This document shows positions 22,524 to 24,734 of a stretch of DNA of 37,529 bases, in pieces. The notes under the pieces were generated by a model. The model saw only the letters and a list, made by a program, of their open reading frames with translations, did no database searches and had not been told where the DNA came from. How positions within the stretch are numbered: position 1 is the first letter of the stretch; the number at the start of each line of letters is the position of its first letter. Source of the stretch: a virus (taxonomy: Duplodnaviria; Heunggongvirae; Uroviricota; Caudoviricetes); the IMG/VR virus record IMGVR_UViG_2718218168_000003; one strand, given 5' to 3'. Both the position numbers and the translations under genes were made by a program.

Positions 22524-24734
22524 ATGAGCACAAAATTCAAAACCGTTATCACCACTGCCGGTGCAGCAAAGCTGGCAGCGGCAACCGCACCGGGAGGGCG
22601 GAAGGTCAACATTACCACGATGGCCGTCGGGGATGGCGGTGGTAAATTGCCTGTCCCGGATGCCGGACAGACCGGGCTTATCCACGAAGTCTGGCGACAT
22701 GCGCTGAACAAAATCAGCCAGGACAAACGAAACAGTAATTATATTATCGCAGAGCTGGTTATTCCGCCGGAGGTGGGCGGTTTCTGGATGCGTGAACTTG
22801 GCCTGTACGATGATGCGGGAACGCTAATTGCCGTGGCGAACATGGCCGAAAGTTATAAGCCAGCCCTTGCCGAAGGCTCAGGGCGTTCGCAGACCTGCCG
22901 CATGGTCATCATCGTCAGCAGTGTGGCCTCAGTGGAGCTGACCATTGACACCACAACGGTGATGGCAACGCAGGATTACGTTGATGACAAAATTGCAGAA
23001 CATGAACAGTCACGACGTCACCCTGACGCCTCGCTGACCGCAAAAGGTTTTACTCAGTTAAGCAGTGCGACCAACAGCACGTCTGAAACACTGGCCGCAA
23101 CGCCGAAAGCGGTAAAGGCCGCGTATGACCTTGCTAACGGGAAATATACCGCACAGGACGCCACCATAGCGCGAAAAGGCCTTGTCCAGCTCAGTAGTGC
23201 CACCAACAGCACGTCTGAAACGCTCGCCGCAACGCCGAAAGCGGTAAAGGCAGCATATGACCTTGCTAACGGGAAATACACTGCACAGGACGCCACCACA
23301 ACGCGAAAAGGCCTTGTTCAGCTCAGTAGCGCCACCAACAGTGATTCTGAAACGCTTGCGGCAACGCCAAAGGCGGTAAAGGCAGCATATGACCTTGCTA
23401 ACGGGAAATACACTGCACAGGACGCCACCACAGCACGAAAAGGCCTTGTTCAGCTGAGTAGCGCCATCAACAGCGATTCTGAAACGCTGGCTGCAACACC
23501 AAAAGCGGTGAAGTCTGCCTATGACAATGCTGAAAAACGTCTTCAGAAAGATCAGAACGGTGCGGATATTCCGGGAAAGGATACCTTCACGAAAAATATC
23601 GGTGCCTGTCGTGCTTATAGCGGCGCTTTGAGCACTGAAGCCGGAAACTGGACAACCGCTCAGTTTATTGACTGGCTAGAGTCTCAGGGAGCCTTTAATC
23701 ATCCTTATTGGATGTGCAAGTGTTCCTGGTCATATGGTAATAACAAAATTATTACCGATACTGACTGTGGGACTATTCATCTTGCGGGTTGCGTGATTGA
23801 GGTTATGGGCGTTAAAGCAGCAATGACTATTCGTGTGACCACTCCGAGTACATCAAGCGGTGGTGGTACCACCAGTGCGCAATTCACGTATATCAATCAC
23901 GGAGCTGATTATGCGCCGGGCTGGCGACGTGACTACAATACGAAAAATAAGCAACCGGCTTTTGCATTAGGGAAAACAGGAAATACGGTTGCAAATAATA
24001 AAGCGGTAGGATGGAACTGGGACAGTGGTGCTTATTGTGCACAGGATGGCGGAGCATCAAAAATGGTGCTGCATTTTTACACGGGTGAGGGAAGTTGTCC
24101 GGCAATGCAGTTTCTTGTGGATTATAAAAACAGGGGGATTTTTTACAGGTCGGCACGTGATGGGTATGGATTTGAGGCTGACTGGTCAGAGTTTTATACC
24201 ACATCACGAAAGCCAACACCTGCGGATATTCTTGCTCTGGCATTATCAGGCGGAAGCATGTCAGGCAGCATAAAATTTATCAATGATGCCTTCCTGATTT
24301 GGGAAAGAAACACTGACTGGGCGAAAATTGGATTTAAAAATGATTCAGATGCTGATTCTGACTCATACATGTGGTTTGAAACTGGTGATAATGGCAATGA
24401 ATATTTTAAATGGCGCATCAGGTCTGGCAGCACAACAAAAGACCTGATGACGCTTAAGTCTGATGCACTACGGGTTACCGGGCAGGTGATACCATCAAAT
24501 TTCAGCAATTTTGACTCCCGCTATGTCCGGGATATCCGGCTTGGTGGTGCCGCCACATACAAACCTGCGAACAATGGCATGACATGGACACATCAGGCAC
24601 CGTCCGGGTGTGTATATACCGGCATTATTGTTCAGGATACCGGCTCAAACTCTGCCGATAACATTGGTGGCGTATATTACAGGCCGGTTCAGAAATACAT
24701 TAACGGGACGTGGTACAACGTGGCGCAGGTATAA
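22524..24734 (+). CDS. H: Tail fibre protein gpH (736 aa): P2-like N-terminus, expanded internal repeats, divergent low-GC C-terminal receptor-binding region
   Basis: N-terminal about 170 aa match recalled P2 gpH; remainder diverges from P2 and shows a visible drop in GC content. Confidence 0.88.
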   Translation: MSTKFKTVITTAGAAKLAAATAPGGRKVNITTMAVGDGGGKLPVPDAGQTGLIHEVWRHALNKISQDKRNSNYIIAELVIPPEVGGFWMRELGLYDDAGTLIAVANMAESYKPALAEGSGRSQTCRMVIIVSSVASVELTIDTTTVMATQDYVDDKIAEHEQSRRHPDASLTAKGFTQLSSATNSTSETLAATPKAVKAAYDLANGKYTAQDATIARKGLVQLSSATNSTSETLAATPKAVKAAYDLANGKYTAQDATTTRKGLVQLSSATNSDSETLAATPKAVKAAYDLANGKYTAQDATTARKGLVQLSSAINSDSETLAATPKAVKSAYDNAEKRLQKDQNGADIPGKDTFTKNIGACRAYSGALSTEAGNWTTAQFIDWLESQGAFNHPYWMCKCSWSYGNNKIITDTDCGTIHLAGCVIEVMGVKAAMTIRVTTPSTSSGGGTTSAQFTYINHGADYAPGWRRDYNTKNKQPAFALGKTGNTVANNKAVGWNWDSGAYCAQDGGASKMVLHFYTGEGSCPAMQFLVDYKNRGIFYRSARDGYGFEADWSEFYTTSRKPTPADILALALSGGSMSGSIKFINDAFLIWERNTDWAKIGFKNDSDADSDSYMWFETGDNGNEYFKWRIRSGSTTKDLMTLKSDALRVTGQVIPSNFSNFDSRYVRDIRLGGAATYKPANNGMTWTHQAPSGCVYTGIIVQDTGSNSADNIGGVYYRPVQKYINGTWYNVAQV
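23043..23520 (+). repeat. About 3.6 tandem copies of a 132-bp (44-aa) in-frame repeat inside H (KG[FL][TV]QLSSATNS[TD]SETLAATPKAVKAAYDLANGKYTAQDAT..R), the phage tail-fibre repeat
   Basis: Unit boundaries at 23043, 23175, 23307 and 23439 read from the sequence; copies differ by a few substitutions. Confidence 0.8.

Follow-up and report, generated by a model that had tools for sequence, protein, structure and literature searches.

The window analysed here, a 37,529-nucleotide stretch of DNA, carries on its plus strand an intact open reading frame of 736 amino acids (H, 22524..24734) and, beginning 4 nt past the stop codon of H, a gene for a 175-aa tail fibre assembly protein (Tfa; G, 24738..25265, plus strand), which we identify, with a probability of about 0.9, as the tail fibre and assembly chaperone of a P2-like (Peduovirus) E. 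coli prophage. H is real but ordinary, because its protein is found in hundreds of sequenced E. coli. The combination of modules is an established and widespread allele, namely that of ΦAA91-ss with one extra repeat unit, and the modules of both genes are already known from P2, Mu, P1 and ΦAA91-ss, which places the locus within known biology. It is a clean textbook case of modular tail fibre evolution, and its import lies mainly in annotation.

Identity and setting of the fibre genes

The late genes follow the order V-W-J-I-H-G and then FI, collinear with the annotated P2 region, and the DNA of 20098..23249, which runs from V into H, shares 96.7% identity with P2. Pfam families in the two genes comprise PF12571, four stretches of PF03406 and, in G, PF02413 (Caudo_TAP, E 1.2e-34), so that H displays the traits of a P2-type gpH, including the PF12571 anchor, a late-operon place upstream of FI, and Phage_fiber_2 units. 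A PHROGs search returned only generic 'tail fiber protein' families; NCBIfam had no family that matched H, and its only hit for G was sub-threshold and meaningless. No evidence runs counter to the identification of the pair as tail fibre and chaperone. Three minus-strand open reading frames within H (23054..23299, 23893..24243, and 24194..24508), which lack any support, were set aside as by-products of the coding strand.

The first 169 residues of H (22524..23030, plus strand) form the baseplate-attachment, or collar, domain (PF12571 Phage_tail_fib, residues 1-151, E 1.2e-58). This anchor is constant among P2-like phages, with 80 IMG/VR loci at least 98% identical across the first 170 aa. An earlier, sequence-only reading of this DNA had matched about the first 170 aa to P2; the match stands, and its limit was drawn too short, given 95% amino acid identity to P2 H across H 1-251. 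By homology, H would function as a trimer in the virion and be needed for adsorption; the distal sequence of H is carried by ΦAA91-ss, an isolated phage.

H may instead be a decaying remnant in a defective prophage, without present function, which we consider possible but unlikely. Gene E encodes the tail assembly chaperone, which is essential in P2, and in the window an IS21-family element of 2580 bp, bordered by a duplicated AACTGC, splits it at approximately codon 71; removal of the element restores the gene exactly. Because of this interruption, functional virions displaying the window's own copy of H are probably not made. However, the frames of H and G are intact, an identical H protein occurs elsewhere (P0005), and relatives sharing the identical 303-aa neighbour downstream of G have a 736-aa H together with an intact E. 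The insertion therefore looks recent and is uninformative on the allele itself.

The 44-residue repeat array

Residues 170-336 of H (23031..23531, plus strand) consist of four tandem 44-aa Phage_fiber_2 units, three of them full and the fourth ending at unit position 35, which a unit HMM places at 170-213, 214-257, 258-301, and 302-336. Pfam Phage_fiber_2 (PF03406) matches H in four stretches with an E-value of 1.7e-81, far beyond chance, and Tandem Repeats Finder detects 3.5 copies of a 132-bp unit at 23070..23525 (90% matches, with a score of 695), in agreement with the initial description of about 3.6 tandem 44-aa copies at 23043..23520. In DNA, the units are 60-91% identical over 132 nt and 70-91% over their homologous part; units 1-3 differ from one another by 9-23% (77-91% identity), and the truncated unit 4 differs more. 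Synonymous codon differences between units exceed non-synonymous ones, and since the unit protein is conserved while synonymous sites diverge, the units are under purifying selection. In the fibre, the array may act both as a shaft spacer and as a recombination linker. Content on the repeat units was found in neither the R18C paper nor the Ur-lambda structure paper.

The number of units was compared across 79 H proteins from IMG/VR with an N-terminus at least 98% identical to that of the window. It ranges from one to five, four being the commonest (41 of 79), and these values are descriptive rather than frequencies, because the sample is redundant, containing many related E. coli prophages; they are also valid for P2-like H proteins only, as the unit HMM, built from three near-identical units, is too narrow for the diverged unit in P1 S. 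Reference P2 (NC_001895) has two units in its H, at 170-213 and 214-251, so that its count does differ from the window's four, and the single copy attributed to it has to be corrected. With two units in P2 and four as the modal count, the array is not an expansion from one copy, as had been proposed. Copy number is nevertheless variable among relatives, as three, four and five units all occur with the window's distal part.

Within the sample, unit number varies inside four distal types (3/4 for that of the window, to which 5-unit variants of 780 aa are to be added, and 4/5, 3/5, and 1/2 for the others), whereas most distal types show one fixed number. Among the 780-aa variants, P0001 and P0003 were read directly, and P0002 and P0004 are equal to them in length. 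Because a unit measures 132 bp (44 codons), gain or loss of units stays in frame. Copy-number polymorphism among close relatives, one trait of a contingency locus, is thus present at H, but a phase-variable repeat locus was rejected, as the copies are imperfect (units 1-3 as given above) and changes in copy number keep the frame. From the sequence, it is plausible that the units lengthen the shaft and that their number sets fibre length.

A further step would be to regard the array as a tuning device, in which unit number is an adaptive host-range trait rather than a neutral by-product of recombination, selected so that the fibre reaches through an O-antigen or capsule layer of a given thickness on the host. 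The range of one to five units behind a nearly invariant anchor, the variation within four distal types and the purifying selection on the units are all consistent with this, as is the way in which unit number tracks the distal kind, the P2-type exit from the array occurring with one or two units and the ...NGADIP exit with three to five. Yet the single fixed number in most distal types suits inheritance together with the module equally well, and the imperfection of the units in DNA implies that their number changes slowly; we therefore hold selection for reach to be rather doubtful.

Distal modules and the paired chaperone

Beyond the array, H is composed of at least three modules with different relatives, namely a body like that of Mu/P1 S', a neck of the P2/Mu S type, and a tip of the 11W type, each of which has a homologue of solved structure (8JU3, 5YVQ_A, 9CUY). 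The S'-type body (H ~337-571; 23532..24236, plus strand) resembles the variable part of S' of Mu and P1 and does not occur in reference P2 H. S' is the alternative fibre of these phages, belonging to the G(-)/C(-) orientation. H 334-571 matches PDB 8JU3_A (Mu S/S') at chain positions 177-416 with an E-value of 3.8e-118, and the body shares 80.4% amino acid identity with P1 Sv' and 75% with P7 Sv; H 227-483 is additionally 77.5% identical to the side tail fibre of the lambdoid phage mEp460. No nucleotide match to P2 was found between 23514 and 24306. The neck (H 572-651; 24237..24476, plus strand) is common to P2 H and to Mu/P1 S, the G(+)/C(+) type: H 571-651 shares 69% identity with P2 H 391-471, the identity to P1 Sv is 68%, H 572-656 matches Mu S 183-267 in PDB 5YVQ_A, and Pfam Gp34_trimer gives a weak match at H 599-654. 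The tip, which pairs with G, spans H 652-736 and the stop codon (24477..24734, plus strand). In the S-U complex 5YVQ_A, H 652-735 corresponds to Mu S 425-503, and the tip also matches the short tail fibre of phiTE (9CUY 482-552). It is 93% identical to its counterpart in phage 11W H, whereas H 651-736 shares 48% identity with P2 H 592-669 (45% by local alignment).

The sequence-only reading had taken everything from about 23560 onward to be unrelated to P2, which holds for H ~337-570 but fails for the neck (69% identical), the tip (48%), and G (75%). Similarly, the proposed swapped host-range module survives as a mosaic whose distal part is unlike that of reference P2, although it is not one block but at least three modules, and the label 'non-P2' is relative to a single reference, since NC_070905.1, filed as Peduovirus P2, has an H at 99% amino acid identity. 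Among the 79 relatives, at least 14 distal types occur; the array has two conserved exits, and five different distal ends follow the S'-type body.

The distal part of H and the start of G are indeed more AT-rich, as had been noted. GC content is 0.555 in the anchor, 0.541 in the repeats, 0.465 at 23523-24236, 0.412 at 24237-24476, and 0.504 in the tip, so that it falls from about 0.55 to 0.41-0.50, and in G it is 0.386 over the first 95 codons and 0.510 in the C-domain. However, P2 itself reaches 0.477 in H 252-669 and 0.379 in G 1-95, and in phage 11W, too, GC drops in the distal part of H and at the front of G. Low GC was therefore rejected as a sign of foreign origin and does not mark a non-P2 source.

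G consists of a more variable, AT-rich N-domain (residues 1-95; 24738..25022, plus strand) and a conserved C-domain (residues 96-175). It matches Mu U over its full length (PDB 5YVQ_B, E 4e-84) and shares 75% identity with P2 G along its whole length of 175 aa (68% for 1-95 and 84% for 96-175), 95% with 11W G, 70% (1-95) and 36% (96-175) with P1 U', and 75% with P1 U. In 31 of 32 unique tip-plus-G combinations with a tip at least 85% identical to that of H (the window's own included), the G N-domain is at least 95% identical, whereas in all 26 unique combinations with a tip at most 72% identical it is likewise at most 72% identical. Across the 58 unique combinations, tip and N-domain identity correlate (Spearman 0.67) with a bimodal split, and it is the whole of G, rather than its N-domain alone, that co-varies with the tip. 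The split (31/32 vs 0/26) bears out one part of the sequence-only reading, the pairing of a distal domain with a cognate Tfa, in that the last 85 aa of H are inherited with G, the behaviour to be expected of a fibre tip and the chaperone that matches it. According to PMC9608196 and PMC8174754, the N-terminal domain of Mu Tfa binds the fibre tip, drives its folding and trimerisation, and stays attached; the roles of the N- and C-domains are taken from the same papers, which cite North et al. 2019. Mu Tfa remaining on the tip is also reported, in PMC8174754 and PMC10579305, to aid LPS binding. By homology, G may act like Mu Tfa, binding the tip, serving as its chaperone and staying on the fibre.

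Compared with known systems, the window is like P2 in operon position, H 1-251, neck, tip, G, and the drop in GC. P2, however, leaves the array via another linker (...AVKTVMDETNKK|APLNSP...), and its H has blocks of its own (252-390 and 472-591) where the window has the S'-type body. The S/S' and U/U' proteins of Mu and P1 share with the window the S' body, the S neck and tip, and a U that matches G in full, but the window differs from them in carrying, within one chain and behind a P2-type N-terminal anchor, an S' body followed by a neck and tip of the S type. The Stf of mEp460 resembles H in its two Phage_fiber_2 units, with matching array exit and body start, and departs from it in a different and much longer siphovirus N-terminal attachment region, another distal end, and a Tfa with 41% identity over 82 aa.

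The Mu G and P1 C segments are invertible. A remnant of such a Gin/Cin-type segment was considered for this locus and rejected, as neither invertase, cix/gix site nor inverted copy occurs there: between G and FI there is no serine invertase, only the 303-aa Mrr-like open reading frame (with no further one of at least 60 aa in 25266..26705 except two short, unsupported ones), the best match to P1 cixL/cixR in 22000..26700 covers 12 of 20 bases (8 mismatches), and H has one end and G one copy, with no opposed alternative set of fibre end and chaperone.

The serial arrangement of H, with the Mu S' body (8JU3 177-416) followed by the Mu S neck and tip (5YVQ 183-267 and 425-503), raises the idea of a two-receptor fibre, in which one surface structure would be bound by the S'-type body and a different one by the S-type tip together with its bound G. 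The reported help of tip-bound Mu Tfa in LPS binding (PMC8174754 and PMC10579305) points the same way, as does a 642-aa sister allele (L065) in which the S' body is followed by an S'-type tip alone, without a neck, which suggests that neck and tip were gained or swapped together. H nevertheless lacks both the body specific to S (Mu S 268-424) and the P2-specific blocks (P2 H 252-390 and 472-591), so that its S-type remainder is confined to the neck and the chaperone-docking tip, and we regard two binding sites as improbable. If they did exist, specificities that Mu and P1 alternate by DNA inversion would be combined in one fibre. The fuller version, with two independent receptor sites as a constitutive alternative to this inversion and with unit number co-selected with the distal module for reach, is likewise improbable.

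Proposed assembly and observed distribution of the allele

We propose that the constant N-terminal domain of H would plug into the baseplate and that the four Phage_fiber_2 units would form part of the shaft, to be followed by the S'-type body, the neck, and the 85-aa tip. Modules may be exchanged between unrelated phages via recombination at short conserved linkers, for which the unit core (...ETLAATPKAVK...), the ...KDQNGADIP... motif, the neck, and the ...INGTWYNVA C-terminus are the candidates; these would also be natural places to join parts when P2 or tailocin fibres are engineered. Unequal crossing-over between in-frame units could alter their number, and it should be infrequent because of the divergence of the units in DNA. 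By analogy with Mu, P1 and P2, the receptor is probably the LPS core.

One of the closest known systems is that of ΦAA91-ss (fiAA91-ss, NC_022750), which shares the module order and has a G 93.7% identical to that of the window; its H, of 692 aa, is 100% identical over the distal 397 aa and differs in having three units instead of four. NC_070905.1 is closer in unit number, with four, and has H and G at 99.2% and 98.3% amino acid identity, respectively. In both, the cargo gene after G differs from that of the window. Proteins listed at 100% identity to H derive from many E. coli contigs, e.g., P0005 (identical sequence, 41) and P0017 (49). Mis-assembly of the four-unit array, to which tandem 132-bp repeats are prone when assembled from short reads, can be dismissed, as at least 24 complete E. 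coli chromosomes among the best 40 matches span the full 2742 bp unbroken at 96-99% identity, many independent contigs encode 736-aa proteins listed at 100% identity, and the differences among units 1-3 are sufficient for unambiguous assembly. At least 80% of H plus G is covered in 78 of 5426 complete E. coli genomes. Reference P2 is not the norm: among the sampled P2-like prophages of E. coli, four units and a body of the S' type are no less common.

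Modular architecture of the tail fibre

At the tail fibre gene H (22524..24734, + strand, 736 aa), a classic mosaic gene, the window carries an allele that is widespread and already known. The sequence-only reading, which took H for a P2 gene with an expanded repeat and a swapped host-range module, was partly confirmed as an observation and partly supported as an interpretation. The coordinates, tandem repeat, and composition shift are all real (Tandem Repeats Finder, Pfam, and GC by block). H belongs to a late operon ordered V-W-J-I-H-G, upstream of FI, and the gene for the tail fibre assembly chaperone G (24738..25265, + strand, 175 aa) starts 4 nt past its stop codon. 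The stretch 20098..23249, reaching from V into the middle of H, is 96.7% identical to P2 (NC_001895) at the DNA level.

Since structure and sequence matches differ block by block, the H fibre is a chain of five modules, running from a P2 anchor (residues 1-169) through four linker units (170-336), a Mu/P1 S'-type body (337-571), and a P2/Mu S-type neck (572-651) to the tip (652-736). The proposal that the distal part is unrelated to P2 holds only for residues ~337-570, which lack a P2 counterpart (no nucleotide match to P2 between 23514 and 24306), whereas residues 571-651 align with P2 H 391-471 at 69% identity and residues 651-736 with P2 H 592-669 at 48%. In the solved-structure search, H 334-571 matched residues 177-416 of the Mu 'tail fiber protein S/S'' (8JU3, E 3.8e-118), H 572-656 matched Mu S 183-267 and H 652-735 Mu S 425-503 (5YVQ chain A), and H 666-733 matched the phiTE short tail fibre at its tip (9CUY). 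Protein identity of the non-P2 block is 80.4% with P1 Sv', the fibre end that P1 makes when its C segment lies in the alternative orientation, and 75% with P7 Sv; with the last array units included, identity to the lambdoid mEp460 side tail fibre is 77.5%. The body and the neck are separate modules with their own histories. Such modules may have been swapped among P2-like, Mu/P1-like, and lambdoid phages via homologous recombination at short conserved linkers; P2 H has reportedly been explained in this way from Haggård-Ljungquist et al. 1992 onward. The locus has no inversion system: neither an invertase nor a cix/gix site (P1 cixL and cixR sought in 22000..26700) was found, and H has a single end, with a single G.

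The 132-bp array lies at 23070..23525 (3.5 copies, 90% matches, score 695 in Tandem Repeats Finder), and Pfam recognizes four Phage_fiber_2 stretches (E 1.7e-81). The 44-aa units span residues 170-213, 214-257, 258-301, and 302-336, the fourth ending at unit position 35. P2 had been credited with a single unit; its reference H (669 aa) has two, at 170-213 and 214-251. Because the units have diverged at the DNA level (60-91% identity over the full 132 nt, 70-91% over homologous parts) with an excess of synonymous over non-synonymous codon differences (16 vs 6 between units 1 and 3, for example), the copies are old and under selection, not a fresh product of slippage. Unit number could be altered by unequal crossing-over between in-frame units, and extra units may lengthen the fibre.

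Tip, chaperone, and base composition

Over its full length G shares 75% identity with P2 G (68% in 1-95, 84% in 96-175); identity to P1 U is likewise 75%, and the match to Mu U (5YVQ chain B, E 4e-84) runs the whole length of the protein. Among 58 unique tip and G combinations, the identity values for the terminal 85 residues of H and for the G N-domain are correlated (Spearman 0.67): where the tip is at least 85% identical to the window's, the G N-domain is at least 95% identical in 31 of 32 combinations, the window's own included, and where the tip is at most 72% identical, the G N-domain falls to 63-72% in all 26. Published work on Mu describes a Tfa whose variable N-terminal domain binds the fibre tip, whose conserved C-terminal domain drives trimerisation, and which remains on the fibre and aids LPS binding (PMC9608196, PMC8174754, PMC10579305). 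The co-variation fits this picture, so the suggested pairing of a putative receptor-binding domain and cognate Tfa holds for the tip and G. In phage 11W the tip is 93% identical to that of H and G is 95% identical to the window's, but the neck is unrelated (26%).

The anchor has a GC content of 0.555 and the array one of 0.541, followed by 0.465, 0.412, and 0.504 in the three successive distal H blocks and 0.386 in the first 95 codons of G, so that the AT-rich distal H and start of G had been correctly recognized (a drop to 0.386-0.504). Low GC as a sign of an allele foreign to P2 was ruled out, since P2 itself shares the drop (0.477 in H 252-669 and 0.379 in G 1-95, vs 0.58 in V-I), as does 11W, with a GC pattern similar to that of P2. 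The AT-rich signature is a property of the shared pool of distal fibre/chaperone cassettes generally.

Spread of the allele and unit number

The phage genome NC_070905.1 (also OU784750.1), filed as Peduovirus P2, encodes an H 99.2% identical with four units, and ΦAA91-ss shares the distal 397 aa identically on three units (692 aa). Many 736-aa proteins are listed at 100% identity in the protein database, including P0017 (49 contigs) and P0005 (41 contigs), the latter read and found identical; there are also 780-aa variants, five units being confirmed in the sequences of P0001 and P0003, with P0002 and P0004 of equal length. At least 80% of H+G is covered in 78 of 5426 complete E. coli genomes, and among the 40 best matches at least 24 span all 2742 bp in one piece.

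The wider sample comprised 80 IMG/VR loci selected for at least 98% identity to the window over H residues 1-170, and with the window, P2, and ΦAA91-ss added it yielded 79 complete H proteins; the IMG/VR sample is redundant, and the counts are descriptive. At least 14 distal types occur, with one unit in 3 proteins, two in 23, three in 4, four in 41, and five in 8, and unit number varies within four of these types (4/5, 3/5, 3/4, and 1/2). Two kinds of array exit are conserved among the 79: the P2-type, AVKTVMDETNKK running into APLNSP, in 26 proteins and always with 1-2 units, and the window-type, AVKSAYDNA running into EKRLQKDQNGADIP, with 3-5 units. Unit number tracks exit kind across the IMG/VR loci (L007-L086), co-inheritance being the sole explanation offered. 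In 31 of the 79 proteins the window-type exit leads into GKDTFTKNIGACRAYS, the beginning of the S'-type body, and this body is joined to five distal ends, giving H proteins of 772, 764, 736, 696, and 642 aa. The 642-aa allele (L065 and 5 similar loci) shares 92.6% identity with the window's H across residues 1-569 and, lacking the 572-663 neck, then passes directly to a tip with 48% identity to the window's; this is the Mu S' architecture (body directly followed by tip) on a P2 anchor. On these counts, the reference P2 state is no more typical of E. coli P2-like prophages than four units and an S'-type body are.

Prophage setting, cargo genes, and an IS21 insertion

The window holds a complete P2-like prophage between chromosomal genes for a YegS-like kinase (1..900) and a U32 peptidase (36168..37529). 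No tRNA gene was found in the window, and the integration site appears to lie beside cyaR. This CyaR/RyeE sRNA gene (36000..36085, - strand, Rfam 100.7 bits) sits past the last tail genes of the prophage, which end at 35594, and adjoins the U32 peptidase gene.

Between G and FI, the cargo position that fun(Z) occupies in P2, the window has a 303-aa ORF (25445..26356, + strand, GC 0.33), with a promoter-like site at 25366..25394 (10/12) and a strong terminator downstream at 26582..26602. A weak match to Mrr_cat is its sole Pfam hit, and PADLOC, NCBIfam, and PHROGs returned nothing. Its homologues number more than 1200, are about 300 aa long with 50-76% identity, and reach into distant phyla, among them Deltaproteobacteria, Planctomycetes, and Nitrosocosmicus; one distant homologue stands alone beside a HicAB pair. 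The family conserves a PD-(D/E)xK-type motif (D42 ... S63-C64-K65) and invariant cysteines at 169, 172, 210, and 214, and the N-terminal half of an AlphaFold model (pLDDT 82) resembles the nuclease domains of MspJI, AspBHI, and EcoT38I. The ORF likely encodes an uncharacterised nuclease that acts as a single-gene defence. The contig index has the exact protein in 605 blocks, and the five locations listed are P2-like prophages similar to this one. The tin/old cargo hotspot, which lies between the replication gene and Q, has an 827-aa helicase-like ORF (7988..10471, - strand; ResIII/DEAD, Helicase_C_2) that matches the PADLOC candidate defence family PDC-S28 over its full length (E = 0).

Gene E, a tail assembly chaperone essential in P2, is split near codon 71, a position upstream of the E/E' frameshift site, by a 2580-bp IS21-family element (28698..31277) encoding IstB (28783..29532, - strand, 249 aa) and IstA (29544..31085, - strand, 513 aa) and flanked by duplicated AACTGC (28692..28697 and 31278..31283). 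In silico deletion of the element restores E exactly, identical to that of relatives. The window's prophage is probably defective for tail assembly. The fibre allele is predicted to be functional in its lineage, and five E. coli contigs encoding the identical 303-aa neighbour have a 736-aa H, a 175-aa G, and an intact E.
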